DNA from: Opitutaceae bacterium
GTDB lineage: Bacteria > Verrucomicrobiota > Verrucomicrobiia > Opitutales > Opitutaceae
NCBI GenBank assembly: GCA_035298965.1
Contig: DATGXO010000107.1
Span: forward strand, 38,860-102,859
Reading direction: 5' to 3'
Length of the DNA: 64,000 bases
In this document: positions 6,484 through 31,905 of the stretch, piece after piece
Numbering within the stretch: the first letter of the stretch is position 1
Layout of the letters: each line of letters starts with the position of its first letter
The notes under the pieces: generated by a model
Database searches by the model: none
Told to the model about the DNA's origin: nothing
Seen by the model: only the letters and a program-made list of their open reading frames with translations
Translations under genes and position numbers: made by a program

Positions 6484-6492
6484 CGGCGCGGC

Positions 6493-7335: not shown

Positions 7336-7337
7336 GA

Positions 7338-7371: not shown

Positions 7372-7385
7372 ACTGCTGAAGCGGC

Positions 7386-9580: not shown

Positions 9581-9636
9581 GGCCGTGCGGGGTTGGCACG
9601 CGCGCAGTGGGACGAACGTGGGCGGGAGCCGGGGGT

Positions 9637-11348: not shown

Positions 11349-11430
11349 CGGCGGATGGTTGGCGCGGTCGCGGACGACCGGCGTGGGCAACCGGGTGGAT
11401 TGAAACGACGGAAAGGCGGGCGCGGACGGC

Positions 11431-12324: not shown

Positions 12325-12326
12325 GT

Positions 12327-13460: not shown

Positions 13461-13470
13461 GGTTGCCAAC

Positions 13471-14604: not shown

Positions 14605-15703
14605 CGGCGGGCGTTTGCCACGGTTCGGCGAGCGGTTGGCGGCGGGCGTAGCAGGCCTCTATCCAGCGCACGGCGGCGGCGGCGCTGGTGCCCGTGACGA
14701 ACGGCGGGCGGCGCTCGCGCACGGCGGCGCAGACATCGACGAGCTGGGCGATGAAGGCCTGGGCGTTGGTCTCGAGCGCCGCGGTGGGCGCGGCGGCGCG
14801 CGGCGGCAGCGGATCGCGGAGCTCGGCGGCGAAAGTCATCGGCAGGCCGTCGAGCGTGAGCTCGAGGTGGTTGGAGGCGTTCACGCGGCAGTGCACGGTG
14901 GCGCGCTCGAAGCGGAAGACGTAGGTGTTCGCCGTTTTCCAGTCGCGGCTCAGGCGGACCTCGGCGCGCACGCCGGAGGCGTAGCGGGCGGTGAGCAGGC
15001 AGTTCGCTTCGAGGCCATCGCGGGCGTCGTCGGCGTAGGCGAACTCGGCGGGTTCGCCGAGCCACCAGAGCAGGAGATCCAGGACGTGGACACCGATGTC
15101 GAGCAGCACGCCGCCGGGAGTCTGTTCGCGGCGGAAGAAGGAGTCGGTGGCGGCGGGCCAGGAGAACTTGCCGCCCTCGGCGATGGCGACGGAGCGCAAT
15201 GGGCCGAAGGTGCCGTGCTCGATCAGGTGGCGCAGCGCGCGGTGCGCCGGCATGAAGCGCTTGTAGTGGCCGGCGGCGAGCAGGCGGCCCGTGCGCACGG
15301 CGGCGGCGGCGATGGCGCCGGCCTCGGCGGCGGTGGGCGCGAGCGGTTTCTCGCAGAGGACATCGAAGCCCGCGGCGAAACACGCCTCGGCCTGCTCGCG
15401 GTGGAAACGCGGCGGGGTGGCGAGCACGGCGAGTTCGCCGCCGGCGGCGAGCGCGGAAGGAAGATCGGCGAAGGCGCGGGCGCCGAGGGCGGCGGCGAGT
15501 TCGTCGCGCGCGGCGGCGACGGGATCGACGACGGCGACGGTGCGCGCGAGGCCGTGGCGCGCGATCTCGCGCAGCGCCGGCAGGTAGAAGAGGCGCGAAA
15601 CGGCGCCGCAGCCGACGAGGACGAGCGACACGGGGCCGGTCTGCGCGGCGGGGGCCGCGGCGGCCGGGAGCGGTTGCGAGGCGGTTGGTGCGGAGTCGAT
15701 CAC
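14591..15703 (-). CDS. Gfo/Idh/MocA family sugar oxidoreductase
   Basis: VSLVLVGCGAVSRLFYLPAL Rossmann start, EKPLA motif, GGVLLDIGVHVLD. GTG 15703 forms a GTGA overlap with the upstream stop (start approximate). Confidence 0.75.
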   Translation of the reverse strand: MIDSAPTASQPLPAAAAPAAQTGPVSLVLVGCGAVSRLFYLPALREIARHGLARTVAVVDPVAAARDELAAALGARAFADLPSALAAGGELAVLATPPRFHREQAEACFAAGFDVLCEKPLAPTAAEAGAIAAAAVRTGRLLAAGHYKRFMPAHRALRHLIEHGTFGPLRSVAIAEGGKFSWPAATDSFFRREQTPGGVLLDIGVHVLDLLLWWLGEPAEFAYADDARDGLEANCLLTARYASGVRAEVRLSRDWKTANTYVFRFERATVHCRVNASNHLELTLDGLPMTFAAELRDPLPPRAAAPTAALETNAQAFIAQLVDVCAAVRERRPPFVTGTSAAAAVRWIEACYARRQPLAEPWQTPADDQA

Positions 15704-16647
15704 GAGGAGACGGAGGTGGCCCGCGGTGTGGCGGGCGTGGCGGCGGCGGTGCCGGCGCGCAGGCGGGCGAGCAGCCGGTAGGCCAGCGCGCGGGGCGAGA
15801 AACGGGAGACGCGGGTGAGCCGGTCGAGTGCGGCGAGGGCGCGCTGCGGTTGGCGGCGCCAGGTCATGCGGGCGACGTTGAGGAGCATCTCGCGCAGCAG
15901 ACGCAGGCAGATGCGGCGGTCGACGAGCGGGTTGCCGAGGTGTTTCTCGAAGACGGCGGAGAATTCCTCGGGGAAACGCACGGGGTCGGCGGTGGTGCTG
16001 ACCGGGTGTTTGCGGTAGTTCAGCGTGGTGCGCTGCGAGAACGACGGGCGGAAACCGGCGCGCGCGAACTCGATGCAGAGGTCGAGGTCCTCGCCGATGC
16101 GCAGCGCGGGATCGAAACGGATGCCGCTGGCGAACACCGCGGCACGCGCGACGATGCCGGAGGTGAGGATGAAGTTGTGCTCGAGCAGGCGCGTGGGGAG
16201 TGCGGCGAGCTCGGTGGGCGGCGGGAGGAGATCGCGGCGGGTGACGCGGCCGGCGGGATCGATGAGGTTCAGGCCGGCGATGGACCACGCCGTATCCTCG
16301 GAACGGAGCAACGAGAGCGAGTGCGCGAGGTGGTCGGGCTCCCAGAGATCGTCGGCATCGAGAAAGGCGATGAACGCGCCGCGGGCGGCATCGATGAGGG
16401 CGTTGCGGGCGCGGGAGACGCCGCGGTTGGTCTCGGCGCGCAGGAGCTGGACGCGGTTCTGCGTCCGCGCGGCGAAAGCGCGCACGATCACGGCGGTGTC
16501 ATCGAACTTGCCGTCTTCGTAGACGAGGATCTCCCAGTGGGGCCACGTCTGCGCGGCGACGGATTCGAGCGTGGCGCCGAGGTAGGCGCCGGCGCGATGG
16601 GCCGGGATGAGGACCGAGACGAGCTCGGCGGTGGCGGGGGCGACCAT
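15700..16647 (-). CDS. GT2 family glycosyltransferase
   Basis: VSVLIPAHRAGAYLGATLESVAAQTWPHWEILVYEDG...FLDADD...GEDLDL. Confidence 0.8.
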   Translation of the reverse strand: MVAPATAELVSVLIPAHRAGAYLGATLESVAAQTWPHWEILVYEDGKFDDTAVIVRAFAARTQNRVQLLRAETNRGVSRARNALIDAARGAFIAFLDADDLWEPDHLAHSLSLLRSEDTAWSIAGLNLIDPAGRVTRRDLLPPPTELAALPTRLLEHNFILTSGIVARAAVFASGIRFDPALRIGEDLDLCIEFARAGFRPSFSQRTTLNYRKHPVSTTADPVRFPEEFSAVFEKHLGNPLVDRRICLRLLREMLLNVARMTWRRQPQRALAALDRLTRVSRFSPRALAYRLLARLRAGTAAATPATPRATSVSS

Positions 16648-16650
16648 CGA

Positions 16651-17574
16651 TCAGGCGGCGGAGCGGAGGCGGAGAAACGCGCGGCGGCGGCCGCGGAGCT
16701 CGGCGGCGTAGAAGCGGCCCTGCTGGTCGGGCAGACGCGCCGCGCGGAAGCGGGCGACGAGGTATCGCCACAGGCTGCTGGCCTCGGCGGGCGCGGTGCC
16801 GCCGCGGAGTGCTTCAACGACGACGGTGGCGAACGAAATGCTTTCGACGAGTCTCAGCAGCGATGGCTCCTCGAGGCGCGAGGCGGGCATGATGTGCGTG
16901 AGCACGAGATCACGGAAGCGCGCGGCGCCGAGGCCGAGGTCGAAGGTGCAGAGCGCGATGTCGGTGTCCTGACCGGAAATACGCTCCGAGCCGCGCAGGC
17001 CGAGAATGAGGTGGCGGGTGTCGGTCTCGACGCAGGCGAGGTAACGTTCCCAGACGCCGCGGCGGATGAACTCGCCGGCGGTGGGCGGGATCGCCTCGTA
17101 GTCGCGCGGGCTCGCGGCCTGGAGATCGCGCTCGAGCGGGCGGATCGCGAGATAGCTCCACCAGCGGCGGGTCCACTCGGCGGGCGGGCGCTCGAACTCG
17201 GGGACGAGTTGGCCGCCCCAGACGCCGAGATCGGGGCGGTTCGTGGCGTAGTCGAGGCCGCGCGTGATGTAGTCGGGCGCGAGAAGGTTGTCGTCGTCGA
17301 CGAAGAGGATGAGGTCGCTGCGCGCTTCGCGCATGGCGCGCATGCGGGCGGCGGCGATGCCGAGCGTGTCCTCGCGCACGTGGCGGCCGTGCGGGTGCCA
17401 GGAGAGGTCGTACGCGGCGGAGAGCGGCGCGGTGGAGGCGTTGTCGAGGAGGACGAGTTCCCAGCGGGCGAAGTCGGCCTGTTGGCGGCGCAGGGCCTCG
17501 AGCGTGCGCTCGAGGAAGACGCGGCGCGGATTGTGGGTGCAGACGACGACGGAGAGTTCGTGGGTGGTCGGCAT
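16651..17574 (-). CDS. GT2 family glycosyltransferase
   Basis: ATG 17574: MPTTHELSVVVCTHNPRRVFLERTLEALRRQ...LLDNAST...FVDDDN. Confidence 0.75.
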   Translation of the reverse strand: MPTTHELSVVVCTHNPRRVFLERTLEALRRQQADFARWELVLLDNASTAPLSAAYDLSWHPHGRHVREDTLGIAAARMRAMREARSDLILFVDDDNLLAPDYITRGLDYATNRPDLGVWGGQLVPEFERPPAEWTRRWWSYLAIRPLERDLQAASPRDYEAIPPTAGEFIRRGVWERYLACVETDTRHLILGLRGSERISGQDTDIALCTFDLGLGAARFRDLVLTHIMPASRLEEPSLLRLVESISFATVVVEALRGGTAPAEASSLWRYLVARFRAARLPDQQGRFYAAELRGRRRAFLRLRSAA

Positions 17575-17582
17575 CGGAAAGG

Positions 17583-18167
17583 TTAGGACGGGAAAGGGAC
17601 GGAGCCGCGGCGGAAGGGGTCGTCGCAACGCACGGTGCCGACGACGCGCGCAGGATTGCCGACGACGATGGCGCGGGCGGGCACATCGCGCGTGACGACG
17701 GCGCCTGCACCGATCACGGCGTGGTCGCCGATCGTCACGCCGCGCAGGACGGTGGCGCGGTTGCCCAACCAGACGTTGCGGCCGATGGCGACGGGCGCGA
17801 CGGCGATCGGCGCGTCGGCATGGACGGGGTGGAAATCGGTGTCGAGCACTGAGACCCACTCGCCAAGCAGGCAGTTTTCGCCGATGCGGACGGATTGTGC
17901 GGCGGCGAGGGCGGCACCGCGGTTGATGAATGTGCCGCGGCCGATCGTGAGCGTGCCGCCGGCGAGCGCGGTGAGGCGCACGGGAAAGAGCCGGCTGTCG
18001 ATGGAAACGTGGTCCGCGATCTTCACCTGCCCGCCGCCGGAGACGACCGGTGCGGCGCCGAGGAGACGCAGACCGCGGCCGGCTTGCACGCCGGCGCGAC
18101 GGCGGAAGCGCCACACGCGGAATGTGGCGGCGAACTGGCGCAGGCGGTGGGAGAACGAGGCGGACAT
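17583..18167 (-). CDS. Hexapeptide-repeat (LbH) sugar O/N-acetyltransferase
   Basis: Repeated [LIV]-G-x4 units: IGENCLLGEWVSV, IGRNVWLGNRATV, IGDHAVIGAGAVV, then VVGNPARV. Confidence 0.75.
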   Translation of the reverse strand: MSASFSHRLRQFAATFRVWRFRRRAGVQAGRGLRLLGAAPVVSGGGQVKIADHVSIDSRLFPVRLTALAGGTLTIGRGTFINRGAALAAAQSVRIGENCLLGEWVSVLDTDFHPVHADAPIAVAPVAIGRNVWLGNRATVLRGVTIGDHAVIGAGAVVTRDVPARAIVVGNPARVVGTVRCDDPFRRGSVPFPS

Positions 18168-18176
18168 TGCGAGGGC

Positions 18177-19589
18177 TCAGTCGGCGGCGGAGTCGTAGAC
18201 GCAGATGATGCGTTCGAGACGTTCGTCGGTCACCCGGATCCAATCGCGCGGTGGACGGCCGAACCAGCTGAGAATCTTGGGTTCATCGATGGGATCCTGC
18301 TGGTGGTAGTGGCACATGCCGGCGGGCCAGCGGTACGGGACCGAGGCGATGACGGTGCGTCCGGTGGCGAGGAGCTTGCGCGCGAAGGCGGCCGGATCGG
18401 AGAGGTGCTCCAGCACCTGGAGACAGAGCACGAGGTCGAAGCGGCGGCCCGGATCATAGACGAAGAAGTCGCCCTGCACGCCGCGCACGCCGGGAATCTC
18501 GGGCTTGAGCGCGATGTCGATCGCGGTCTTGTCGGGGATCCACTCGAGGCGGCGCAGGAAGGCGGTGTTGCGCGGGCCAACCTCGAGGACGGACCCGGCG
18601 GTGGCGGCGTGCTCGGTGGCGAGGCGGCGGACCTCGAGGTAGTAGTTCATCTCGCGCCGATGCTCCCAGTATTCGGAGGAGTCGCGGCGGAGCAGGCGCG
18701 GGAGCACGAGGCGGGCGGCGCGGAGGTTTTCGCGGGAGAAGGGGCGGTGGACGAAGGCGCCGCCGAGGTGGCGGAGAGCGGCGCGGCGCTGGTGGTGCGC
18801 GGAGGCGTAGAGCGCCCATTCGCGCTGGGTCGCGGCGGCGTCGCGCTCGTGGAGGAGCGGGCGGACGGGCGGGGGGACGAACGCCACGCCGCGGCGCGCG
18901 GCGGTGCGGCGCAGGATGCCTTCCTTGAGCTCCCGTTTCTTCGTGCCGTGGGTGAAGTTGGAACTGCCCGGGTGCAAACGGTAACGGAGGAGCGGAGACA
19001 GAAGATTGGCGAGGCGGCCGACTTCGGCGAGGCGCAGGAAGATGTCGAGGTCCTGCGAGTAGGGCAGCTCCTCGTTGTAGCCGCCGACTGCGAGCAGGGC
19101 GTCGCGGCGGAAGACGAGCGTGGGATGGATCATCGCGCCGCCGTTGCCGGTGAGGAGCTCGCGGTCGATGGCCTCGTGGAGGGCGGGCGGATCATAGCGG
19201 TTCACCGGCGCGCCGTGGTCATCGATGCTGTGGACGGAGGTGCCGAGCGCGACGACCGCGGGATGCGACTCCAGATAACGGAGCTGCTGCGTGAGGCGGT
19301 CGGGCTCGGCGAGATCGTCGGCATCCATGCGGGCGACGAAGGGCGCGGTGGCGAGGGCGAGGCCGCGGTTGAGCGAGCGGGTGATGCCGCGGTTCTCCTG
19401 GTCGATGCAGTGGAGGCGCGGATCGGCGGCGGCGAAAGCGCGGCAACGTTCGCCGCTGCCGTCGGTGGAGCCGTCGTTGACGAGGATGAGACGGAAGTCG
19501 GCGAGCGTCTGCCGCTGGAGGCTGCGGACGGCGTCGTCGAGGTAGCGGCCGGCATTGAAGACCGGCATGACGATGTCAACGAGCGGCAT
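18177..19589 (-). CDS. Fusion protein: N-terminal GT2 glycosyltransferase plus C-terminal class-I methyltransferase-like domain
   Basis: N-terminus VDIVMPVFNAGRYLDDAVRSLQRQTLADFRLILVNDGSTDGS...MDADD. C-terminus FDLVLCLQVLEHLSDPAAFARKLL is Methyltransf_11/23-like, but motif I reads VLEVGPRNT instead of GxGxG. Confidence 0.7.
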   Translation of the reverse strand: MPLVDIVMPVFNAGRYLDDAVRSLQRQTLADFRLILVNDGSTDGSGERCRAFAAADPRLHCIDQENRGITRSLNRGLALATAPFVARMDADDLAEPDRLTQQLRYLESHPAVVALGTSVHSIDDHGAPVNRYDPPALHEAIDRELLTGNGGAMIHPTLVFRRDALLAVGGYNEELPYSQDLDIFLRLAEVGRLANLLSPLLRYRLHPGSSNFTHGTKKRELKEGILRRTAARRGVAFVPPPVRPLLHERDAAATQREWALYASAHHQRRAALRHLGGAFVHRPFSRENLRAARLVLPRLLRRDSSEYWEHRREMNYYLEVRRLATEHAATAGSVLEVGPRNTAFLRRLEWIPDKTAIDIALKPEIPGVRGVQGDFFVYDPGRRFDLVLCLQVLEHLSDPAAFARKLLATGRTVIASVPYRWPAGMCHYHQQDPIDEPKILSWFGRPPRDWIRVTDERLERIICVYDSAAD

Positions 19590-20841
19590 GGGCGTGAGGG
19601 CGGCCGGTGATCGCGGCGAGGAGCGGGCCGTAGCAGCGCTCCGGCGAAAAACGGGAGAGCGCGAGGTCGCGGCCCTGTTTGGCGCGGGCGGCGCGGGCGG
19701 CGGGATTGCGGAGGAGCGCGACGATCTGGGCGGCGAAGTCGACGGGGGTGTCGGCGGGCGGGAGCGTTTCCGAGAGGAAGCCGAGGCCTTGGAGACCGGT
19801 CGAGGTGGTGACGACGGCCTTCCCGTGGGAGAGCCCTTCGAGGAGTTTGATCTTCACGCCGCCGCCGTGGTGGAGCGGGACGAGCACGAGCGCGGACGCT
19901 CCGTAATGGACATCCGGCGACTCGATGAAACCGAGGTTCTCGACGCTGGGATCGAGGCCGGTGAGGCCTTCGCCGACGCGGCCGCAGATGCGCAGGCGTG
20001 CGGCGGGGTGGTCGCGCAGCACGCGGGGCCAGACCTCGGCGAGCAGCCAGGCGAGGCCGGCCCGGTTGGAGGGGTTGTGGCTGCCGAGGTAGAGGCAGAG
20101 GTCGGGGTTCTCGGTGCCGGGCGCCTGCTCGGCGGTGACGGCCTTCGGCACGAGGATGATCCGTTCCGGCGGGACGAGCTCGGTGTAGGCGGCGTAGTCG
20201 TCGTCCGAGATGGCGACCACGCGGTCGGCGACGGACAACATGGCGGACTCGGTACGGGCGGTGAGGTAGTCGAGGCTGCCGGGGGCGAGCAGCGCGGCGG
20301 TCGAGCGAGCCTTCTGATGCCAGACGTTGTGGCTGAGCATGATCGTCGTGGCGCCGTTGGCGACGGTGCAGGCGCTGCCGAGCCACGGGTAGTTCACGAG
20401 GAGGGCGTTGGGCCGGAGGCGGCGCACGAGGCGGGCGACGAAGGCGAGCTCGGACTGGTCAAGCGGGCGGTACCAGCGCGGCACTCCGTTGGGGATGCCG
20501 GCGAAGGGCACGATCTCGTTGGGGGAGGCCGGCTCGGGTTGGAGGCGCGAGCCGAGGCGGCGGGCGGTGCGACCACCGAGGGGCAGGCGCTCGGGGAAGA
20601 AGTGCGTGCCCGCAACGTGGACACTGCGGCGGAAGTGCAGACGGCAGACGGAGGCGAGCTCGGCGGGTGTGCGCCAGCGCCAGGAGTTGGCGACTTCCGC
20701 GGGTTGCTCGAGCCAGGCGACGTGGCACCGCACGCCGTGCTCGGTGAGGAAGCCCATCATCTCGTGGAGCAAGGCGCTGGCGCCATCGTCCTGCGGGCGC
20801 GGGCTGTGGCGCGTGACGAAGAGGGCAAGTGGGGCTGCCAT
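19576..20841 (-). CDS. Glycosyltransferase GT-B (GT4-like)
   Basis: ATG 20841: MAAPLALFVTRHSPRPQDDGASALLHEMMGFL... C-terminus GGGVKIKLLEGLSHGKAVVTT is typical of GT4. The track ORF to 21108 is over-extended. Confidence 0.7.
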   Translation of the reverse strand: MAAPLALFVTRHSPRPQDDGASALLHEMMGFLTEHGVRCHVAWLEQPAEVANSWRWRTPAELASVCRLHFRRSVHVAGTHFFPERLPLGGRTARRLGSRLQPEPASPNEIVPFAGIPNGVPRWYRPLDQSELAFVARLVRRLRPNALLVNYPWLGSACTVANGATTIMLSHNVWHQKARSTAALLAPGSLDYLTARTESAMLSVADRVVAISDDDYAAYTELVPPERIILVPKAVTAEQAPGTENPDLCLYLGSHNPSNRAGLAWLLAEVWPRVLRDHPAARLRICGRVGEGLTGLDPSVENLGFIESPDVHYGASALVLVPLHHGGGVKIKLLEGLSHGKAVVTTSTGLQGLGFLSETLPPADTPVDFAAQIVALLRNPAARAARAKQGRDLALSRFSPERCYGPLLAAITGRPHAHAAR

Positions 20842-20863
20842 CGGAGCGGGAGCGCGGCGCGGG

Positions 20864-22111
20864 TCAGGCGGAGCTGATGGCGAAGGCGGGCTCGATGCGG
20901 CAGCCGCCGAACGAGCGGTCGCTCTCGTGGTCGTGCACGCTGGTGACGACCTCCCAGAGGGCGAGGGAGCCGATGCTGTCGTAGTAGTGGCGGCCGGAGC
21001 CGATGGCGGCGCTGATCTGGTAGGCGCCGGGGTGGAGCGGCAGGCGCGGGAGTTCGAGGCGGATGCGGCTGGTGCCGGCGGGCAGGGTGAAGGTGCGGCC
21101 GCCGCCATCCGAATCCAGGGTGAGGATGCGCTGGCCGTCGACGGTGCGGAAGCCCAGGCCGAGCATCATGTTCTCAAGGGTTTCGCGCGCCTCGACGACG
21201 AACTCGATCGCGAAGGGCTGGTTGAAGCGCAGGCCGCCGGGGGAGACGACGGCGACCTCCTTGAAGCGTGCGGTGCGGGCCTCGGCGCCGGGGCTGCGTT
21301 TGGCGGCGGTGAGGTCGAGTGTGAGCGCGGAGGCGCCGGAGCCTTGGGCGTAGTGCTCGATCGCGGTGTCGACATCCATCGGGCCGCTGGAGCGGCCGCC
21401 ATCGAGGAGGACGCAGCGTTTGCAGAGGCGGCGGATGGCCGTCATGTGATGGCTGACAAAGAGGACGGTGCGGCCGGAGCGCTCGGAGACATCGGCCATC
21501 TTGCCGAGGCATTTGCGCTGGAACTGCTGGTCGCCGACGGCGAGGACCTCGTCGACGATGAGGATGTCGGGCTCGAGGTGGGCGGCGACGGCGAAGGCGA
21601 GGCGGACGTACATGCCGCTCGAGTAGCGTTTGACCGGCGTGTCGAGGAAGCGCTCGACCTCGGAGAAGGCGACGATCTCGTCGAACTTCCGGGCGACTTC
21701 GGCGCGGGTCATGCCGAGGATGGCGCCTTTGAGGAAGATGTTGTCGCGGCCGGAGAGCTCGGGGTGGAAACCGGTGCCGACCTCGAGGAGGCTGCCGACG
21801 CGGCCGCGCAGGCGGATCTCGCCGGAGGTGGGCTCGGTGATGCGGGAGAGGACCTTGAGAAGGGTGCTTTTGCCGGCGCCGTTGCGGCCGATGATGCCGA
21901 GGGCTTCGCCGGGCTGGACATCGAAGGAGACGTCGCGGAGCGCCCAGAAGTCGCGTTTGTCCTCGCGAGGTGCGGCGGCGGGTTTGCCGCCGGCGAGCGA
22001 GCGGCACCAGCGGCCGAGACGTTCGACATCATCGCGGAGCGAGGTCATGCCGATGTGGCCGAGTCGGTACTTCTTGGAGACTCCGCGGATTTGGATGATG
22101 GGACGGGACAT
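20864..22111 (-). CDS. wzt: Polysaccharide ABC exporter ATP-binding protein with C-terminal glycan-binding-type domain (Wzt/TagH-like)
   Basis: Walker [10 protein letters not shown], signature YSSGM, Walker B ILIVDE. An extra roughly 160-aa C-terminal beta-rich domain follows, as in Wzt proteins that read a chain terminator. Confidence 0.85.
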
Positions 22112-22121
22112 GCGGGAAAGA

Positions 22122-22150
22122 GGCGAGAGGCTAGAGGGAAGAGGCGAGGG
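22122..22150. repeat. Purine-rich leader motif: exact GGCGAGAGGCTAGAGG at 22122-22137 plus GAAGAGGCGAGGGG
   Basis: Read directly in the 51-nt wzm-wzt spacer. Confidence 0.85.
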
Positions 22151-22162
22151 GACGGAGCGGGC

Positions 22163-23029
22163 TCAGACGGTGTCGACGAAGGTGCGGGCGGCGCGCTGGT
22201 AGGCGAAGATGCCGACGAGGAAGACGAGGATGGAGAGCGCGACGGATTGGGCGTACTGCGTCGCGTCGACGTGGCCGACGCCGAGGAAGAGGCGACGGGT
22301 GGCCTCGACGATCGCGGTCATCGGATTGAGTTGGGAAACCCAGCGCCACTTCTCCGGCACGCGGGAGAGCGGATAGATGATCGGCGTGGCATACATCCAG
22401 AGCTGGATGATGAACGCCTGGATGTGGTGCAGGTCGCGGTATTTTGCGGTGAGCGTCGAGAGGATGAGTCCGATGCCGAGGGCGAGCACGGCCATGTGCA
22501 GGACGATGGCTGGGTACGCGAGCCAGACCAGCGACGGGCCGGCGACGGCGGGGTTGTGCGCGAACCAGTGTTCGCGGACGAAGAACGTGAAGAACGTGAG
22601 CAGCTGGATGCTCAGGGCGATCAGACACGAGACGGCGAGCGCGAACGGCGGGATCAGGCGCGGGAAATAGACCTTCGAAAAGAGCGCGGCGGAGCCGGCG
22701 AGGGAGTTGCCCGTCGCGCCGAGCACGGCGGCGAAGTACGTCCAGCCGAGCATGCCGCAGAGGTAGAAGAGCATCGGCGGGACGCCGTCAGTCGGGACGC
22801 CGATGACCTTGTTGAAGATCAGGGTGAACGTGAAGGTCGTGATGAGCGGGTTCAGGAAGAACCACGCGGGCCCGAGGATCGTCTGCTTGTACTTCGCGGT
22901 GAAGTCGCGGAGCACGAGTTGGCGCAGGAGATCGCGGTATTCGATCAGGCCGCGCCAGTCGAAGACGAACCAGGCGGTCGTGGGCTTGATGACGATCTCG
23001 GTTTCCGAGGACGGTGGCAGTGTGCTCAT
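22163..23029 (-). CDS. wzm: ABC-2 type polysaccharide exporter permease (Wzm-like)
   Basis: ATG 23029: MSTLPPSSETEIVIKPTTAWF...LVLRDFTAKYKQTILGPAWFFLNPL, the ABC-2 signature region, and 6 hydrophobic spans. Confidence 0.85.
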   Translation of the reverse strand: MSTLPPSSETEIVIKPTTAWFVFDWRGLIEYRDLLRQLVLRDFTAKYKQTILGPAWFFLNPLITTFTFTLIFNKVIGVPTDGVPPMLFYLCGMLGWTYFAAVLGATGNSLAGSAALFSKVYFPRLIPPFALAVSCLIALSIQLLTFFTFFVREHWFAHNPAVAGPSLVWLAYPAIVLHMAVLALGIGLILSTLTAKYRDLHHIQAFIIQLWMYATPIIYPLSRVPEKWRWVSQLNPMTAIVEATRRLFLGVGHVDATQYAQSVALSILVFLVGIFAYQRAARTFVDTV

Positions 23030-24615
23030 GCGGAAGGTAGGCGTGGATGGAGGCGGGCGGCGGCGGTGGGCAGCTCGTCGGTATGGGTCGACGTGAAGGC
23101 GGATTCCAGCGATTCGCGTGCCGGGGCGGCACGCACGATCGCGAGGGCGAGAAGGGCGGCGACGGAGGCGAGGCCGAGCACGGCGGGATTGCGTAGGACG
23201 AAATCGATCCAGCCGTGCGCGAGCACGAACGCGGCGCCGGTGGCGAGCAGCGCGGCGGCGGGCACGAAACTCCACGCGCGGCGGAGCGCGGCGAGCCAGA
23301 CCAGCCACGGGGCGGCGAAGAGCGCGGTGCCGACGAAGCCGAACTCGGCGCTGAACTCGACCCAGTCGCCGTCGGCGTGGACGTGCACGGGGCGATTCCA
23401 GTTCGGTTGAAAACGGCGCACGGCTGCGGCGAAGGTGGGCACGCGTTGCTGGTACTCAGGGAAGAGGATCACGTAGCTGCCGGCGCCGTGGCCGAGCCAT
23501 GGGCGGTCGAGCGTCATCTGCCAGGCGATGTCGTGGAGGATGCGCCGATACGAGCCGCCGACGAGAAGATCGCCCGGCTCGCGCGCGAGTTCGGCGACGC
23601 GGTGCAGCGTCGCGCGGACCGGCGGCAGCAGCGCGAGGCCGGCGGCGAAGACGAGCGCCGCGGCTGCGCCGACCGTGAGGAGGCGCGGGCGGGAGAACCA
23701 GCGGTCACGCAACGGCCAGAGCACGAAGGCGGCGGCGGATGCTGCGAGTACCGCGGCGCCGGCGAGGCCGGCGCGGGAGCGGGTCGTGACGGTGCCGAGG
23801 AAGACGAGCGCGACGAGCAGACCACACCAGAGATTGCGTCGGCGCAGGAGCGGCCACGGGCGCAGCGGCGTGGGCGCGAACCAGGCGGCGAGCGCGAGCG
23901 CGAGCAGCACGACCTGATAGGCGGCCTGCTGGTTCTTGTACGGGAACTGCGGCGCGCCGAGGTGGAACGCGGCGTCGGACACCAGCCAGAGCACGGCGTG
24001 CGAACCGGAGAGGTTGTGGGCGAACGCGAACGCGGAGAATGCCGCGGCGTGGAGCGCGAGCAGGCCGAGCACGGCGGAGAGGAAGGGTACGCGGCGGCGC
24101 AGCGCGGCGAAGGCGGCGAGCGGCAGACCGGCGGCGGCGGCGACGAGCAGTTGGCGCCAGGCGTTGGCAAAATCGAGGAAGTCGCCCGGCAGGCGGTCGA
24201 AGGGGCCGGCGATACCGGTCGGCAGCCAGGCGCGATGCGCGAGCGGCACGATCGCGCCGACGGGACGGCGATCCGGAATCAGGAGACGGTCGGGGTTGAT
24301 CGCCTGACAGAGCAGGAGTCCGGCGAAGGCGAGCGCGCAGAACACGACGAAGGGCGAGAAGAGCGGCGCGGCATCCGCGCGCACGGTGCCCGCGCGATCG
24401 CCGTCGCCGGTGGGCCACGCCACGAGCCGGCGACGGGCGGCGAGCCGGGCGAGCACGAACGCGATGCCGCCCACCGCGGCGGCGAGCGTCTGGCCGCCGA
24501 CGGTCGACGCGCCCAGCCACCATGCCGGCGCGATCCACGCCACGGCCAGCGCGCAGAGCACGACGCGCTCCGCGGAGGAGAGCGTGTCGGACGGCGCGTT
24601 GGTGGCGGCGGTCAT
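23026..24615 (-). CDS. Wzy_C-domain membrane protein (O-antigen ligase / O-oligosaccharyltransferase-like)
   Basis: 529 aa, at least 10 hydrophobic spans, TTRSRAGLAG loop motif, GHGAGSY segment. ATGA overlap with wzm. Confidence 0.65.
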   Translation of the reverse strand: MTAATNAPSDTLSSAERVVLCALAVAWIAPAWWLGASTVGGQTLAAAVGGIAFVLARLAARRRLVAWPTGDGDRAGTVRADAAPLFSPFVVFCALAFAGLLLCQAINPDRLLIPDRRPVGAIVPLAHRAWLPTGIAGPFDRLPGDFLDFANAWRQLLVAAAAGLPLAAFAALRRRVPFLSAVLGLLALHAAAFSAFAFAHNLSGSHAVLWLVSDAAFHLGAPQFPYKNQQAAYQVVLLALALAAWFAPTPLRPWPLLRRRNLWCGLLVALVFLGTVTTRSRAGLAGAAVLAASAAAFVLWPLRDRWFSRPRLLTVGAAAALVFAAGLALLPPVRATLHRVAELAREPGDLLVGGSYRRILHDIAWQMTLDRPWLGHGAGSYVILFPEYQQRVPTFAAAVRRFQPNWNRPVHVHADGDWVEFSAEFGFVGTALFAAPWLVWLAALRRAWSFVPAAALLATGAAFVLAHGWIDFVLRNPAVLGLASVAALLALAIVRAAPARESLESAFTSTHTDELPTAAARLHPRLPSA

Positions 24616-24659
24616 GGAGGTTGGTTGTTGCGGGCCAAGTCGGCGACCTGGCCTACAGG

Positions 24660-25940
24660 TCAGAACGTGCAGGAGACGAAGCCGGCGATGACGTGGCGGT
24701 CGTAGTCGAGCAGGTTGTTGTTCGAGCGGGAATTCGTGTAGGTGTAGTCGGCGCCGGCGGCCCAGGTGCGGTTGATCGAGTAGGAGAGATTCAGGCCGGC
24801 GCGGGTGCGCTCATCGTTGCGGCTGGTACTCGGGAAGTCGGCCCATTCCTCGGCGAGGCTGAGCGAGGCGCGGGTGCGTTGTCCGATGCGTTGGGTGACG
24901 CCGAGGCGGAGGGACGAGCTGACGGTCGAAAGGTTGTCGGCGCTGAGGCCCTGCTGGCGGCTGGCGTTGACCGATACGACGGTGCGCTCGCGGGCGTGCC
25001 AGGAGAGGGAGAGATTGCCGACGAGGGTGGCGCGACCGTGGTCGTTGAGGCCGACGGCCTCGCCCTGTTCGTAGCCGATGGAGAACGAGCTTTCGAGCTT
25101 CGGGAAGCGGGTCGGAGGGAGGAACGGTCCGGTGAGGCGGAGGCCGAAGGTCATGCTGCTGTCGTCCTTGTTGCGGTCGAGGGTCTCGTCCTGACCGCGT
25201 TTGAGCCAGCGGTAGCCGACATCGGCAGAGGCGCGGAGGCCGCTGATGAACTTGTAGAAGAGGCCGCTGCTGAGGGAGTGCGACTGTTGGTCGATGGAGC
25301 CGGCGGCGCCGTTGGAGTTGCTCACCGTATCCGTATAGCGGTAGTCGGCGCCGAGGCCGAAGCCGCCGAGGAAGTCGTTGTAATCGAAACCGGCGCCGGC
25401 GTTCCACTGGGTGCGGTCGGTGAAGACGTCGCGGGAGGTCTCGGTGTAGGCGAGGTTGGTGCGGAGATCGACGCGCGGGCCGGCGCGGTAGGTGCCGGAG
25501 AAACGGCCGCCCCAAGTCGTCGCGCGGACGCGGGCGCCGACGGTCTCGTCGACATCGGTCGTGTCGGAATAGTTGGCGGAGAACACGCCCTCCTGGCGCG
25601 CGCCCTCGGGGGTGGGCAGGTCGACGCGGAGGGAGGCGTGGTAGCCTTCGTTATCGAGGTTGGTGAAGTCGGCGTAGCGGTTGATGGAGACGCCGGCGGA
25701 GGCATCGATCGTGCCCAGGCCGGCGGCGCGGCGGTAGGCGAAGGTGGGCGCGAGGGTGTAGATCGTGTCGTCGAGTTCGCTGGAGTTGCCGAGGAGGTTG
25801 GTGTCGTAGGAAATGCGGCCGATCGTGGTGAGCGTGAGGGAGCCGCGGGCGAACTCCGCGAGGGCGTGGGCGGTGGCGGGGAGGACGAGGGTCGCGAGCA
25901 GCGCGGCCGGGAGCAGGGCGGTTTTTGGGGCGGTATTCAT
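24660..25940 (-). CDS. Outer-membrane beta-barrel protein, polysaccharide/PEP-CTERM-locus type
   Basis: Signal peptide (LLATLVLPATAHA), alternating-residue strands rich in Y/G/S/T/N, and a C-terminal aromatic residue (…GFVSCTF). Confidence 0.6.
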   Translation of the reverse strand: MNTAPKTALLPAALLATLVLPATAHALAEFARGSLTLTTIGRISYDTNLLGNSSELDDTIYTLAPTFAYRRAAGLGTIDASAGVSINRYADFTNLDNEGYHASLRVDLPTPEGARQEGVFSANYSDTTDVDETVGARVRATTWGGRFSGTYRAGPRVDLRTNLAYTETSRDVFTDRTQWNAGAGFDYNDFLGGFGLGADYRYTDTVSNSNGAAGSIDQQSHSLSSGLFYKFISGLRASADVGYRWLKRGQDETLDRNKDDSSMTFGLRLTGPFLPPTRFPKLESSFSIGYEQGEAVGLNDHGRATLVGNLSLSWHARERTVVSVNASRQQGLSADNLSTVSSSLRLGVTQRIGQRTRASLSLAEEWADFPSTSRNDERTRAGLNLSYSINRTWAAGADYTYTNSRSNNNLLDYDRHVIAGFVSCTF

Positions 25941-27538
25941 GGTGTAACGCTTTCGAAACGGACGAGCTGGGGAAGGGCCGCGCGCAGGGCGGCGACGGCG
26001 GAGTCGTAATCGTAGACGGCGCCGGAGAGGGTGATGCCGAGCACGCGTTGGCCGAGGTTGCGGTTACCGGCGAGGACGGAGGCGAGGCGTTCGTCGGCGG
26101 CGACCTGGCGGTAGTCGAGATGTTCGCCGCTGACGGAGGGGCGTTCCTCGACGAGGCCGTGGAAGACGTAGAAGCGCTGGCCGGCGCGCTCGAAGATGTA
26201 TGTGCGGAACGGGATCGTGAGCGTGCCGACGGTGAGGGGCAGCACGTCGCGGTTTTCGACGAGCTCGAGGCCGGAGGCGGGGAAGCAGACGGTCGGGTAA
26301 TGCGAGCCGGCGAGAAACTTGGAGACGCGGCCCGGATCCCAGCGCAGGAAGAACGCCTGCCAGCGGATGCCGTCGGCATCGGTCCACGAGCCGCGGGCAC
26401 CGTCGTTGTGCTTGAGGAGCTTGACGGTGCGGTCGTCGAACGGCGTGGACTTGTAGTCGGCGGCGGCGGTGGGCCAGGCGATGTCCCAGCGCAACGGCGC
26501 GGGCAGGCGGCTCTCATGGTAGCCGTACCAGGCGCGCGTGGTGACCTCGCCGGTGAGCAGCCCGACGAGCAGGACGACGAAGGGCGTGATTGCGACGCGC
26601 GGGGTGGCGAGCAACGACGTGCCCGGACCGCCGGCGAGGGCGCGCGGACGGTTGCCGCGGGCGACGAGGGCTGCGAGCGCCCACAGCCCGGCGATGCAGC
26701 CGATCATGACGAAGTTGCCCATCGGATCGTGCCAGCGGTGCAGGGCCTCGGTGCCGTCGCGGCCGGCGACGTAGGTGAGGGTGACGGTGCGGGCGGTGTT
26801 GAGGAGGAAGGCGACGACGAAGCTCGAGAGGACGAGCACGATCCGGCGGACGAAGCGGAGGCGGTAGAATTCGCCGAGGAAGAGCGACATCATGAACGCA
26901 GTCTGGAGCGAGCGGATACCGCTGCACGCCTCCTCGACATCGACGAGCGACTGGCCGATCGCGATGGTGTTGCCTTGCGCGAGCGCGGGGATGCCGCAGA
27001 GGGAGAGGCCTTCGGCGCTGATCTGGGTGTTGAGCTGCATGAGGCCCTGCGTGAAGGCCTCCTCGGCCCAGACCGGCCAGGGCAGCGCGGTGAGCGTGAA
27101 GAACACCGGGAAGGCGAAGTGCCAGGTCCAGCGCCAGCCGCCCCAGGCGGTGAGCACGGCGAAGGTGGAGCCGAGCGCGGCGACGGCCATGAGCCAGTTG
27201 ATGCGCACCCAGTCGGGGTTCGCCTCGTGGATGACGCGCAGCGGCACGAGGGCGAGCGCGACGAGCGTGAGGACGAGGGCGGGGAGCCAGTTCGCGGCGC
27301 GGGCGAGCGGCGCGGCGGCATCGCGGAGGCGTTCGAAGACGAGATAGCCGGCGAGTGCCGGGATGGCCCAGCCGTACGAATACAGCGGGTTGACCCGCCA
27401 CTCGAGGCTCTGTTGCGACCAGACGGCCAGCCAGAGCGCGCCCAGGCCGAGCGCGACGGCGACGAGATCTCCACGGAAGGCCAGCGGGCGACTGGTCGAA
27501 CTGGCCGTGGCGGGCGCGGACGAGGCGGCGGTGGGCAT
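25937..27538 (-). CDS. Exosortase fused to a C-terminal EpsI-family domain
   Basis: ATG 27538. Multi-pass N-terminal half carries the exosortase catalytic motifs EEACSGIRS and LLNTARTVTL. A soluble C-terminal domain of roughly 200 aa has EpsI layout. Confidence 0.8.
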   Translation of the reverse strand: MPTAASSAPATASSTSRPLAFRGDLVAVALGLGALWLAVWSQQSLEWRVNPLYSYGWAIPALAGYLVFERLRDAAAPLARAANWLPALVLTLVALALVPLRVIHEANPDWVRINWLMAVAALGSTFAVLTAWGGWRWTWHFAFPVFFTLTALPWPVWAEEAFTQGLMQLNTQISAEGLSLCGIPALAQGNTIAIGQSLVDVEEACSGIRSLQTAFMMSLFLGEFYRLRFVRRIVLVLSSFVVAFLLNTARTVTLTYVAGRDGTEALHRWHDPMGNFVMIGCIAGLWALAALVARGNRPRALAGGPGTSLLATPRVAITPFVVLLVGLLTGEVTTRAWYGYHESRLPAPLRWDIAWPTAAADYKSTPFDDRTVKLLKHNDGARGSWTDADGIRWQAFFLRWDPGRVSKFLAGSHYPTVCFPASGLELVENRDVLPLTVGTLTIPFRTYIFERAGQRFYVFHGLVEERPSVSGEHLDYRQVAADERLASVLAGNRNLGQRVLGITLSGAVYDYDSAVAALRAALPQLVRFESVTP

Positions 27539-29868: not shown

Positions 29869-30558
29869 TCAGAAGAGGCGTTCGGGGATCCAGATCCGGT
29901 CGCCGGGGATGATGGCGAACTCCTTGGGCGTGTCGGGGCCGGCGCCACGGCGGGTGAGCATGGCCTCCACGTTGATCTCGGTGGTCGTCTCGCGGCCGTC
30001 GGCGCCGAGGCGGGTGACGCGGACCGAATCGGAGCGGGCGGTGGGGAGGAAGCCGCCGGCGCGCGTGATGACATCGGTGATGTCGAGCGTGCTCTTCTCG
30101 GGCGGGAACGCCATCTTGCCCGGGCCGCGCACGGCGCCGAGGATCGAGATGTCGCGCACGGCGTACGCTTGAACCGAGATGTTCACCATCGGGCTCTTCA
30201 GGATGCGACGATCGACGTAGAGCTTCTCGATGAGTGTCTCGGATTCGCGTACGGAGCGGCCGGCGAGTTCGATGTCGCCGACGAGGGCGAGGCGGATGCG
30301 GCCGCGGGAGTCGATCTTCTGGGCGAGGGAGAGTTCGCCTTCGCCGTAGACGTTGATCGAAACGAGGTCGCCGTTGACGAATTTGTACGCGGGATCGGGC
30401 ACCTCGCCGACGGGGGCGACCGCGGCGGGCGCGGTGTTGGCTGGCGTGGTGGTGGCGGCGGGCGCCTGGGCGTGGGCCGCGAGGGCGGCGGAGCCGAGGA
30501 GGGCGGCGAGGAGCAGGAGGCGGAGCGCGCGGTGCATGGCGGAGAGGCCGGAGTTCAC
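29869..30558 (-). CDS. wza: Short outer-membrane polysaccharide export (OPX, Wza-like) protein
   Basis: Signal peptide, Poly_export-type segment YKFVNGDLVSINVYGEGELS, and one SLBB-like domain. At about 229 aa it lacks the C-terminal helix of group-1 Wza. The GTG 30558 overlaps the vapC stop; ATG 30537 is an alternative start. Confidence 0.75.
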   Translation of the reverse strand: MNSGLSAMHRALRLLLLAALLGSAALAAHAQAPAATTTPANTAPAAVAPVGEVPDPAYKFVNGDLVSINVYGEGELSLAQKIDSRGRIRLALVGDIELAGRSVRESETLIEKLYVDRRILKSPMVNISVQAYAVRDISILGAVRGPGKMAFPPEKSTLDITDVITRAGGFLPTARSDSVRVTRLGADGRETTTEINVEAMLTRRGAGPDTPKEFAIIPGDRIWIPERLF

Positions 30559-30968
30559 GTTTCGAGGGGCAGGGCGAATTGTTGGACGAGATCGCCCGGG
30601 ATGCGGGCGAGGGCGGGATCGCGATGGACGAGCACGGCGCCCTCATGGCGGGCGGTGGCGGCGACGAAGGCGGCGGAAACGGGGAGCTGGCCGCCGGCGC
30701 GTTCGAGGATGCGCTCGGCGTCGGCTACGACCTCGCGGGTGACGGGAAGGGCGGCGATGAGTTCCTCGGCGTAGAGGCGGTAGGCGCGGCGCGCTTCGGC
30801 GGGGTCGGGCACGGCGGAGGCGAGGCGCGACTTGAGATCGATGAGGGCGGTGGCGGGAAGGCCGATCTCGACGGAGTTGTCGGCGAGGAGGGCGTTCACC
30901 TGCTCGGCGCCGGGCTCCTGGAAGTAATGCGCCAAGATCGCGGAGGGATCGAAAACGTGGGTGATCAT
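30555..30968 (-). CDS. vapC: PIN-domain toxin (VapC)
   Basis: ATG 30968: MITHVFDPSAILAHYFQEPGAEQV... with acidic PIN residues. The late motif is AVLVHRDPALARI. ATGA overlap with vapB. Confidence 0.8.
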   Translation of the reverse strand: MITHVFDPSAILAHYFQEPGAEQVNALLADNSVEIGLPATALIDLKSRLASAVPDPAEARRAYRLYAEELIAALPVTREVVADAERILERAGGQLPVSAAFVAATARHEGAVLVHRDPALARIPGDLVQQFALPLET

Positions 30969-31186
30969 CGGGACGACTTGGACGCAGCGACGGCGCCGAG
31001 GTAGGCGCGGCCGGCACCGAGCAGGCCGTTGGCGATGGCCTTGCGATCGGGGAGGACGCGCACGCGGATGACCGCGGGCTGATTGGTGGGCTGCCATTCG
31101 AGGCGGCTGCCGGGCACGATACCCATCGCGGTGGCGAGCTTCGCGGGAATCGTGATCTGATGTTTGCCGGTGACCGTGGTGATCAT
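30965..31186 (-). CDS. vapB: AbrB/SpoVT-fold antitoxin (VapB)
   Basis: ATG 31186: MITTVTGKHQITIPAKLATAMGIVPGSRLEW, the looped-hinge-helix signature. 73 aa. Confidence 0.75.
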   Translation of the reverse strand: MITTVTGKHQITIPAKLATAMGIVPGSRLEWQPTNQPAVIRVRVLPDRKAIANGLLGAGRAYLGAVAASKSSR

Positions 31187-31236
31187 GTTGGAACGTGGGG
31201 GACGAGGCGGCGGGAAAAGTGTTGGGCGGATCAAGA

Positions 31237-31248
31237 CAAGCTACCGCC
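31237..31248 (-). promoter_or_regulatory. ops-like element GGCGGTAGCTTG (matches GGCGGTAGnnTG)
   Basis: The plus strand reads caagctaccgcc at 31237-31248. The site lies between the RfaH-like gene's stop and the vapB start, on the non-template strand of the operon. Confidence 0.5.
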
Positions 31249-31350
31249 CTTGGCGGAGGCCGTGGTGGACGGCTCAACCGCGAGCGAACCCCGTTGTGGC
31301 GAGGGGTGGCGGAACATGAGCGAGTGTCCGCGACTCGGCTCCCGCAGCGG

Positions 31351-31905
31351 TCAGCCGCAGGAAGCCAGGAGTTGCGGAGGAAAATCGAGCGAAGCCGGGC
31401 CCGTGCGACGGAGCGCGGCGGCGGGAAGGTCGATGCGCAGTTCCTGCCCGAGCAGTGCGAGCAGCACGCAGGCGCGGCTCCGGCCGGAATCGAAGGTGAC
31501 GATGCGCCCCTCGCTGCCCGCGAGGCACCCGGACAGCACCTGGATCCAATCGCCCGGAGCGAGCACGGGCGCGCAGGGTTGCACTCCGGAGGCGTGGGCG
31601 CGCAGCAACTCGATGAGCGAGCCGGGCACGGCCGGCGTGTGAGCGCCGAGCCGCACGAGGCCGGTCACATCGGGAGTGCTGGCGACGAAGCGGGAATCGG
31701 CTTCGAGGTCGAAACGCGCAAAAAGGTAACCCGGGAAAAGCGCCTCCGTGCGCACGGCGACGGCCCCGCCGCGCAGAGGCCGACGAACGGCCAACCGCGG
31801 CGCGAATGCCTCGATCCCGGTGCGGTCGGCCAGCTGCCGCGCGGCGAAGTGTTCACGCTTCGGGCAGGCGCGCAGGCAGTACCACTGGAGACGGGAGGTG
31901 TTCAT
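31351..31905 (-). CDS. RfaH-like NusG paralog (operon-specific transcription antiterminator)
   Basis: ATG 31905: MNTSRLQWYCLRACPKREH...EALFPGYLFARFD...GLVRLGAHTPAVPGSLIELL...PGDWIQVLSGCLAGSEGRIVTFD...ACVLLALLG. It is colinear with the E. coli RfaH NGN and KOW domains. The track ORF adds 59 implausible N-terminal residues. Confidence 0.75.
   Translation of the reverse strand: MNTSRLQWYCLRACPKREHFAARQLADRTGIEAFAPRLAVRRPLRGGAVAVRTEALFPGYLFARFDLEADSRFVASTPDVTGLVRLGAHTPAVPGSLIELLRAHASGVQPCAPVLAPGDWIQVLSGCLAGSEGRIVTFDSGRSRACVLLALLGQELRIDLPAAALRRTGPASLDFPPQLLASCG

Follow-up and report, generated by a model that had tools for sequence, protein, structure and literature searches.

Does a perfect match to the enterobacterial ops (operon polarity suppressor) sequence, lying beside the gene for an RfaH-like protein in a verrucomicrobial genome, belong to a genuine control signal for the glycan operon that it precedes? 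The question is raised by a stretch of 64,000 nucleotides (nt) from an Opitutaceae bacterium (assembly GCA_035298965.1, contig DATGXO010000107.1, positions 38,860 to 102,859 of the forward strand), which we refer to as the window and number from its first letter. An earlier note on this DNA had proposed that a cis-linked RfaH/ops pair heads a glycan operon. We find that the 12-mer is the 3' part of a larger element, conserved in position, strand and structure across related genomes, and we consider it likely that this element controls transcription elongation. Two features of the window are needed from the outset.

31351..31905, minus strand: gene for an RfaH-like specialised NusG paralog of 184 amino acids (aa) plus stop, with NGN and KOW domains (identified by Pfam, NCBIfam, phmmer searches of the PDB and AlphaFold2 [AF2]).

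31237..31248, minus strand: ops-like 12-mer GGCGGTAGCTTG, by direct reading (G1 = 31248; T6 = 31243; T11 = 31238, the predicted pause base; G12 = 31237).

Direct reading confirms that GGCGGTAGCTTG agrees with all 10 specified positions of the ops consensus GGCGGTAGnnTG on the coding (non-template) strand, and that it is the only match to GGCGGTAGNNTG within the 64-kb window (31248-31237, minus strand). The single ops of the window adjoins the paralog gene. The stop codon of that gene (31351-31353) is 102 nt upstream of G1 and the ATG of the next, vapB-like gene (at 31186) is 50 nt downstream of G12, close to the 100 and 50 nt first estimated, and the spacer of 164 nt between the two genes contains the element. 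The estimate that about 0.1 matches would be expected by chance also holds, dinucleotide-preserving shuffles of the window yielding 0.10 GGCGGTAGNNTG matches per window and at least one match in 10 of 100 shuffles. Since shuffles already yield this many, the match within the window is by itself only suggestive. When one mismatch is permitted, there are 14 ops-like matches against 17 expected, i.e., no enrichment.

The comparison with related genomes is decisive on this point. Scanning one genome per species gave 80 loci encoding relatives of the paralog, nearly all of them from Verrucomicrobiota broadly defined (Opitutaceae, Chthoniobacterales, Verrucomicrobiales, Limisphaerales, Kiritimatiellales/Pontiellaceae, and Lentisphaerae). 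The core GGCGGYAG is present on the coding strand 30-130 nt past the paralog stop in 37 of the 80, against 0.83 expected from the background rate of GGCGGYAG over the same 600 kb of loci. Of the exact 12-mer there are 14 copies on the paralog strand, 12 of them 67-108 nt past the stop, and only two on the opposite strand. Position, strand and sequence of the element are kept across loci from Opitutaceae, Chthoniobacterales, Verrucomicrobiales, Kiritimatiellales/Pontiellaceae and Lentisphaerae, with 47-108 nt between the end of the paralog gene and the element in these cis loci. For example, the cultured relative Oleiharenicola lentus (L016; L numbers are our labels for loci and contigs) has GGCGGTAGCGCG 48 nt past the paralog. 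In the eight closest genomes, whose paralogs are 69-88% identical, the element is the longest invariant block in the intergenic spacer. A 12-mer missing from this position in relatives, which the earlier note had named as grounds for abandoning its proposal, is therefore not what is observed.

Conservation extends beyond the bases used to find the element. Since 38 elements were chosen solely by GGCGGYAG, positions outside these eight bases are unselected, and among them the remaining ops positions are strongly conserved (C9 in 95%, T11 in 82%, and G12 in 92%). The upstream flank has C-5 in 72%, C-4 in 95%, A-3 in 64%, A-2 in 64%, and G-1 in 74%. The family consensus reads (g)aCCAAG-GGCGGYAGCyTG. 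Chance agreement in a genome rich in GC might still be invoked to explain the 12-mer, as one shuffle in ten contains such a match, and a scan of metagenome contigs for the exact 17-mer CCAAGGGCGGYAGCTTG, which returned at least 120 stretches with at least one match each, points the same way in part: among the matches listed, about half look like coding sequence or chance, while about 60 show the full hairpin layout described below. However, conservation of position, strand and flanks in 37 loci, together with the invariant block in the alignment of the eight closest genomes, refutes this explanation, to which we attach practically no weight.

What precedes the 12-mer is also part of the element, as the next two features show.

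31253..31281, minus strand: two-tier hairpin GCGG..GCCG-loop-CGGC..CCGC, located just 5' of ops, its 3' arm ending in the conserved CC of CCAAG.

31233..31290, minus strand: whole JUMPStart-like element (hairpin, AAG, ops and 4 nt), with bounds taken from covariance model R1.

RNAfold assigns the hairpin of the window a free energy of -14.0 kcal/mol. When the 40 nt before the element were folded in 38 loci, chosen without regard to structure, an equivalent hairpin was found in 36, its 3' arm ending 3-6 nt before G1, and the mean z score against shuffles was -1.5. The common form has an outer stem GGTy/GACC, a 3'-side bulge of 1-2 nt, usually CG, and an inner part whose stem and loop are free in sequence and length; the hairpin of the window clade is a related two-tier variant of it. 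Covariance model R1, built from 14 metagenomic elements only (examples of equal length), has a single match in the 64 kb, at 31233-31290 (29.2 bits, E = 7e-7, about 25 bits of any R1 match stemming from the 17-mer alone), and besides the window element it recovered 37 genome loci at the expected place. On the R1 alignment, which had been fitted to the model, 92% of cells are paired versus 72% in shuffles (none of 500 shuffles reaching 92%), double-sided changes number 53 versus 18.6, and slid registers give 20-49%. Since U-G pairs are frequent, the helix appears to exist at the RNA level. RNAalifold missed this hairpin on MAFFT alignments because loop lengths differ, and on an ungapped alignment it picked out only the invariant mini-stem G2:C9/C3:G8, which corresponds to the non-template-DNA hairpin in the structure of RfaH bound to ops (PMC5995543). 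The conserved unit is thus larger than the 12-mer and consists of a covarying hairpin, then AAG, then GGCGGYAGCyTG.

This composite is reminiscent of the JUMPStart element, which was reportedly described by Hobbs and Reeves in 1994, in that both precede polysaccharide genes and consist of a stem-loop with ops as the 3'-terminal part. The E. coli JUMPStart sequence CAGTGCTCTGGTAGCTGTAAAGCCAGGGGCGGTAGCGTG was found in all 5,426 complete E. coli genomes; one example is situated some 75 nt upstream of rfbB. The 3' half of this sequence, GCCAGGGGCGGTAGCGTG, departs at two positions from GCCAAGGGCGGTAGCTTG in the window, CCA-r-G-GGCGGTAGC-k-TG being common to both, and in both the CC at -5/-4 is located inside the 3' arm of the hairpin. 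However, the hairpin in the PVC group is longer and two-tiered (GGTy/GACC outer stem, 3' bulge of 1-2 nt, variable inner stem), and it ends 3 nt before G1 rather than 1 nt as in E. coli. The Rfam JUMPstart model RF01707, which has a gathering threshold of 35 bits, scored 60 bits on the E. coli rfb leader used as a positive control, with a 5-bp stem cUGGu/gCCAg directly before GGGCGGUAGCGUG. The same model gave no match at E <= 10 in 30900-31500, none at the gathering score in the whole window, and none at E <= 1 on 18 metagenomic examples. As no family of the Rfam library matched the leader, the whole window or these 18 examples, the element is not among the RNA families catalogued there. JUMPstart has been listed for gamma-Proteobacteria only (Weinberg et al., PMC2864571).

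As for the protein, the paralog open reading frame (ORF; 31354-31905) carries a NusG NGN domain (Pfam PF02357) and is most similar in sequence to RfaH. A protein of identical sequence is recorded under an Opitutaceae metagenome-assembled genome. Its NCBIfam scores are 83.1 bits for RfaH (83.1 and 74.1 for the pair TIGR01955 / NF006534), 45.7 for LoaP, 44.1 for UpxY, and 32.6 for NusG. Each of the first three lies below the respective cut-off, which is 144.5 and 124 for the two RfaH equivalogs, 125 for LoaP (NF033641), and 100 for UpxY (NF033644). The paralog and 41 relatives, 42 aligned proteins altogether, all fit the RfaH models at E <= 1e-10 and better than the UpxY, LoaP and NusG models. 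In phmmer searches of the PDB, E. coli RfaH is the top match (E = 6e-15 to 7e-15), colinear over residues 3-155 as the earlier note had seen from its motifs, with NusG proteins following from 5e-7. Chain 8f5g ("NusG-RNA complex"), presumably LoaP, has an E value of 1.8e-5 compared with 6e-15 for RfaH. Residues characteristic of RfaH are partly retained: the equivalent of RfaH-specific E48 (E54) is conserved in about 100%, that of R138 (R144) is kept too, and the C-terminal domain has a Leu-rich, RfaH-like VLLALL stretch. In the contact loop, T72, G74 and V75 are kept in most relatives, and paralogs with an adjacent element have S-T-x-G-V there; R23, a further DNA-contact residue of RfaH, and its neighbour Q24 align to D27/R28 or R28/T29 of the paralog. 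An AF2 model based on the 42-sequence alignment has a mean predicted local distance difference test score (pLDDT) of 84.8 and a C-terminal KOW domain folded into a β-barrel (pLDDT of about 88-91 over residues 120-160). In Foldseek searches, this model matches NusG and the open, β-state form of RfaH. Judged from its sequence, the window protein is RfaH-like and not a member of the RfaH equivalog. We use the former term because the scores are below cut-off, the KOW domain is predicted to be β, and the equivalents of RfaH residues K10, H20 and R73 are not conserved.

The parallel with the E. coli ops/RfaH system, which is said to go back to Bailey (1997) and to Artsimovitch and Landick (2002), is close in several respects. 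In both, the 12-mer is identical at all specified positions and is on the non-template strand, in an untranslated leader; ops is known from leaders of long operons for polysaccharide, LPS, pilus or toxin genes, and the operon in the window is one for polysaccharide. They agree in the consensus-pause frame G1G2...T11G12 and the C3:G8 pairing potential, and the presumed partner is likewise a two-domain NusG paralog, most similar to RfaH. There are also clear differences. The E. coli system belongs to Gammaproteobacteria and the present, putative one to Verrucomicrobiota and the PVC group; rfaH is stand-alone and unlinked, whereas the PVC paralog gene is directly upstream of the element; and position 6, the three residues named above and the predicted KOW fold, an α-hairpin in E. 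coli, all differ in ways that are weighed below.

On balance, it seems likely to us that 31233-31290 (minus strand) is a JUMPStart-like transcription-elongation control element, in which a nascent-RNA hairpin and an ops-type 12-mer would form the pause and loading site of the paralog. The E. coli ops signal, which loads the elongation factor RfaH onto RNA polymerase, combines a consensus pause with a hairpin in the non-template DNA (Zuber 2018, PMC5995543). By analogy, we infer pausing, non-template-DNA read-out, loading of the paralog and antitermination as follows. RNA polymerase that arrives from the paralog gene, or from the promoter region of that gene, would pause at T11/G12, with G1-G2, T11 and G12 fitting the consensus pause. 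In the transcription bubble, the non-template strand would form a mini-hairpin (G2:C9, C3:G8) that exposes G4-G5-Y6-A7, and the NGN domain of the paralog would bind this exposed DNA and the polymerase clamp, stay on, and exclude housekeeping NusG. The bound paralog might then suppress pausing and Rho-dependent termination across the operon of about 30 kb. As for the RNA hairpin, it trails the pause position by about 14-15 nt and may restrain backtracking or make the pause more stable. The gap between paralog gene and element being only 47-108 nt in cis loci, a pause there could conceivably leave the polymerase close to the ribosome from which the paralog has just been released, a speculation akin to the cis-recruitment idea cited in PMC13015549.

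Several observations weigh against this reading, the first three of them against a straightforward transfer of the E. coli mechanism. In RfaH, bases of ops are contacted by the side chains of K10, H20 and R73 (PMC5995543). In the HMMER and MAFFT alignments, K10 is replaced by P, Q or C (Q in most relatives), H20 by L, Q or N, and R73 is variable (P in the window). Consequently, if the paralog reads DNA, it uses a different pocket. Position 6, an invariant T in E. coli ops that is flipped into the RfaH pocket, is T in 15 and C in 23 of the 38 elements (T in the window), and it switches between T and C among close relatives with no matching change in the protein. The KOW domain is predicted by AF2 as a β-barrel rather than as the autoinhibitory α-hairpin, so that sequence-specific gating of the E. 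coli type is uncertain. The hairpin of the window is itself weak (z = -0.8). Finally, the sequence data fit non-template-DNA and RNA read-out of one strand alike. Separately, when the T or C at position 6 was compared with residues of the paralog in search of covariation, only phylogenetic signal from the window clade emerged, and the idea was set aside.

The last of these points brings in a rival explanation, namely that the element works as RNA, either with the hairpin and the single-stranded tail AAGGGCGGYAGCUUG bound by the paralog in the manner of LoaP, or as a put/EAR-type processive antitermination RNA that acts directly on RNA polymerase. The covarying hairpin tolerates G-U pairs, which implies that at least this half is read or used as RNA, and a paralog without the DNA-contact side chains of RfaH would suit such a role. 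Moreover, the non-proteobacterial NusG paralogs with a known signal, LoaP and UpxY, use RNA or a 5' leader (PMC7819879). However, the invariant core is identical to the core of E. coli ops, which is read as DNA, and the pause-defining frame G1G2...T11G12 is retained along with the C3:G8 mini-hairpin (PMC5995543). The stems and loops of the RNA hairpin vary so freely in sequence and length that it is not a sequence-specific protein site, and the LoaP score of the paralog is far below its RfaH score. The comparison with these two systems is instructive in other ways. UpxY (of Bacteroides capsule operons) and LoaP (of Bacillus polyketide operons) are likewise specialised NusG paralogs encoded beside a long target operon with a signal in the leader, but UpxY is the first gene behind its own 5' leader, whereas the signal in the window follows the paralog gene. 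LoaP binds an RNA hairpin, and neither of the two uses ops. We therefore regard action of the whole element as RNA as unlikely and favour loading of the paralog at an ops-type pause.

If the paralog were to act solely on its own operon, the element would be expected beside its gene; metagenomic contigs show a broader picture. Among the matches listed, 43 hairpin-type elements have at least 700 nt of upstream sequence, and the paralog is directly upstream in five and absent there in 38. The element is just upstream of the paralog gene on four contigs (L092, L101, L116, and L119), and three others (L121, L160, and L172) hold an element together with an opposite-strand paralog several kb away. 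The genes that follow are those of glycan loci. The 35 non-redundant first ORFs scanned downstream comprise nine bacterial sugar transferases, five epimerases/dehydratases, two CapD-type proteins, two ABC-2 permeases, two hexapeptide acetyltransferases, a carbamoyltransferase, a GT1, an acyltransferase-3, and others. Taking related loci and contigs together, genes behind the element include acetyl-, acyl- and carbamoyl-transferases, ABC-2 exporters, and outer-membrane proteins. The element therefore marks the heads of glycan operons across the phylum, beyond the cis arrangement of the window. Since it precedes glycan genes on many contigs with no adjacent paralog, these sequences suggest that it probably acts in trans as well as in cis. 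Of the cis-linked RfaH/ops pair first proposed, the conserved pairing and the best fit to RfaH models stand, while the protein is RfaH-like only, the unit is larger than the 12-mer, and the arrangement is not purely cis.

The 38 elements with no paralog directly upstream also bear on another rival explanation, in which the conserved element causes a pause, or serves regulation, with no part played by the NusG paralog. Translation or RNA folding might be timed by a pause that needs no factor, or another regulator might bind at the site, and recruitment of the paralog would then not depend on sequence; it could, for example, be co-translational in cis. The flanks of ops by themselves encode a consensus pause (PMC5995543), and the predicted β KOW domain suggests a factor that is not autoinhibited and needs no DNA signal to open (PMC13015549). 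However, a pure pause needs the flanks only, whereas here the central CGGYAGC does not vary even over distances on the scale of a phylum, and this calls for a reader specific to it. Moreover, the element is tied to the paralog family in three arrangements, with the paralog gene before ops, with ops before the paralog gene (the four contigs above), or with the two a few kb apart (the three contigs above), and a promoter role is excluded where a start codon follows within 13-16 nt. A site of this kind strikes us as quite improbable, and a specific signal loading the paralog remains our preferred explanation.

Two conventional roles for the element were considered and rejected. No sigma-70-like promoter site was found in 30900-32900, and a start codon only 13-16 nt past the element in L056, L073, L074 and L076 excludes a promoter there. 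A ribosome-binding role does not fit either, as the distance from element to start codon ranges from about 13 to about 300 nt. No intrinsic-terminator-like site was found in the window sequence between the paralog stop and vapB, in keeping with read-through from the paralog gene. The lack of a Shine-Dalgarno sequence at vapB, considered as an RfaH-like trait, is uninformative because only one of 31 gene starts predicted in the window (crude start calls) has a Shine-Dalgarno-like purine run within 20 nt, and the host genome seems largely free of such sequences.

Some paralog loci have no adjoining element, and in these we found neither a shared alternative k-mer downstream nor the element upstream of the gene. 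They include the paralogs of Limisphaerales or "subdivision 3" type (L025, L027, L030, L034, L035, L041, L046, L068, and similar), after which the next gene, judged by eye, is often apparently convergent. In this group, H is found at the RfaH H20 position in 65% and R at the R73 position in 41%. The paralogs of L121, L160 and L172 are 70-97% identical to Limisphaerales-type proteins without an adjoining element. Because these contigs, with near-identical paralogs, hold the ops-hairpin element several kb off, the Limisphaerales-type paralogs may be a trans-acting subgroup.

Among the matches listed, the biggest group of contigs is from Verrucomicrobia, with 85-90% identity to proteins named Ca. 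Udaeobacter or assigned to soil Verrucomicrobia metagenome-assembled genomes. On nine Ca. Udaeobacter-like soil contigs (L088, L127, L130, L134, L140, L144, L163, L199, and L200), public calls of the sugar transferase start at an ATG upstream of the hairpin and give proteins of 287-295 aa, compared with 269 aa from a start at the element. Because the public calls begin there, hairpin and ops are annotated as coding, and the starts of these sugar transferases are probably mis-called. Contig L158 has two hairpin-plus-ops elements on the minus strand, at 4360-4404 and 6531-6577, 2.2 kb apart; one precedes a 383-aa ORF and the other is about 190 nt upstream of a 182-aa ORF.

How does this compare with what is known of RfaH-like proteins? 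Of 117 phyla, 23 were reported to have RfaH homologues, Proteobacteria accounting for about 95% of the homologues, and E. coli RfaH has been described as the sole representative with a known recruitment mode (PMC7593976). "Monomorphic" proteins of the RfaH clade (2026 preprint, PMC13015549) and RfaH clusters CL2-CL8 (Wang 2020, PMC7593976) share with the window paralog a predicted NusG-like β C-terminal domain and a gene beside a long glycan operon, with neighbours involved in cell-envelope biogenesis; the monomorphic proteins are encoded beside or within long operons (PMC13015549). In contrast to the near-canonical ops that we find beside the gene and at unlinked sites, ops-independent recruitment in cis was proposed for monomorphic proteins, and a conserved DNA signal was not reported (PMC13015549, PMC7593976). 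Verrucomicrobia are not mentioned in the main texts of these two papers. We found no open-access literature linking RfaH or NusG paralogs with Verrucomicrobia; as subscription journals were mostly outside the search, an earlier description is possible. A full-text literature search for GGCGGTAG returned primers only.

From the sequences compared here, an ops/JUMPStart-type signal with an RfaH-like partner would now extend to the PVC group. More tentatively, ops recognition could go back much further than the RfaH lineage of Proteobacteria, or be more mobile than it. Paralogs found throughout the PVC group, without the K10/H20/R73 readers and maybe without autoinhibition, would then use the same non-template-DNA signal, set in a JUMPStart-like leader. 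In cis, a pause at ops 50-110 nt past the stop codon might allow a newly made paralog to load onto the very polymerase that had transcribed its gene (translation-coupled loading), and unlinked ops sites would be served in trans besides; we offer this as a doubtful idea. A near-identical ops in a JUMPStart-like leader, kept across Verrucomicrobiota, Kiritimatiellia and Lentisphaeria beside paralogs that lack the contact residues, is a natural second system for asking what ops recognition requires. It bears on whether signal or reader arose first and on the need of autoinhibition for specificity. In practical terms, R1 or CCAAGGGCGGYAGCTTG provides a simple sequence marker for the starts of glycan operons in abundant, little-studied soil and freshwater bacteria such as Ca. 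Udaeobacter, in which the element also flags likely mis-called gene starts.

The element is followed in the window by a short leader and a long run of genes, all in the same direction.

31187..31236, minus strand: leader from ops to the first gene, 50 nt, C-rich and G-poor; at most a hint of a Rho-loading (rut-like) tract.

30965..31186, minus strand: vapB-like antitoxin gene (AbrB/MazE fold; PF04014, TIGR01439), first after ops.

30555..30965, minus strand: PIN-domain (vapC-like) toxin gene (PF01850, E = 2.4e-11).

29869-30558, minus strand: Wza-like polysaccharide export gene (PF02563, SLBB domains).

27583-29790, minus strand: Wzc-like tyrosine autokinase / chain-length determinant (TIGR01007, 133 bits, above cut-off).

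863..27401, minus strand: remaining glycan gene run, by NCBIfam and frame bias, with an outer-membrane protein, a Wzm/Wzt ABC exporter, several GT2, an acetyltransferase, an epimerase-like protein, and others of no known family.

A C-rich, G-poor composition is typical of Rho loading sites. In the 60 nt past ops (31177-31236, of which 10 nt are inside vapB), C makes up 0.47 and G 0.12, with similar values in L002, L006 and L007, and this composition hints at a possible rut-like site behind ops in the window. As a family-wide feature, such a tract was rejected, since it is strong in the window clade only.

The run on the minus strand is unbroken down to 863 and comprises about 29 genes over about 30 kb. 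Calling genes crudely by codon-position bias gave 18 confident genes between 863 and 30558, about nine more in gaps, and the vapBC-like pair, so that the 29 co-directional genes of the earlier note are roughly right. Its description of the locus as exosortase-associated was not confirmed, no exosortase being found among the 25 window ORFs scanned; there was only a weak match of the outer-membrane protein to a PEP-CTERM-associated family. A vapB-like gene with the same N-terminus follows the element in all seven of the closest relatives (L001-L007), and five of them (L002 and L004-L007) show a PIN ORF as well. For a toxin-antitoxin pair, it is odd to be conserved in such a place, leading a glycan operon.

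Upstream of the paralog gene, a conserved non-coding block at 32011-32167 (minus strand), about 125-295 nt upstream of the paralog start, is common to L001-L007 and coincides with a dip in GC content at 32000-32199. Within it, the inverted repeat CCCGAT-ttccatg-ATCGGG precedes a run of T, after which come GTAAAAA..GTCAA..ACGA and, about 90 nt on, a second TTCCATGA. Rfam gave no match in this block, and it probably serves the paralog and the operon as promoter or regulatory region.

Finally, a short palindrome or hairpin, GAGTCGCGGACACTC, is located right behind the paralog stop, at 31322-31336 (minus strand). It is a perfect GAGTC-CCG-GACTC in L002-L004, and Kiritimatiellales (e.g., L043 and L058) have ATTTCGCAattgacTGCGAAAT at this place.

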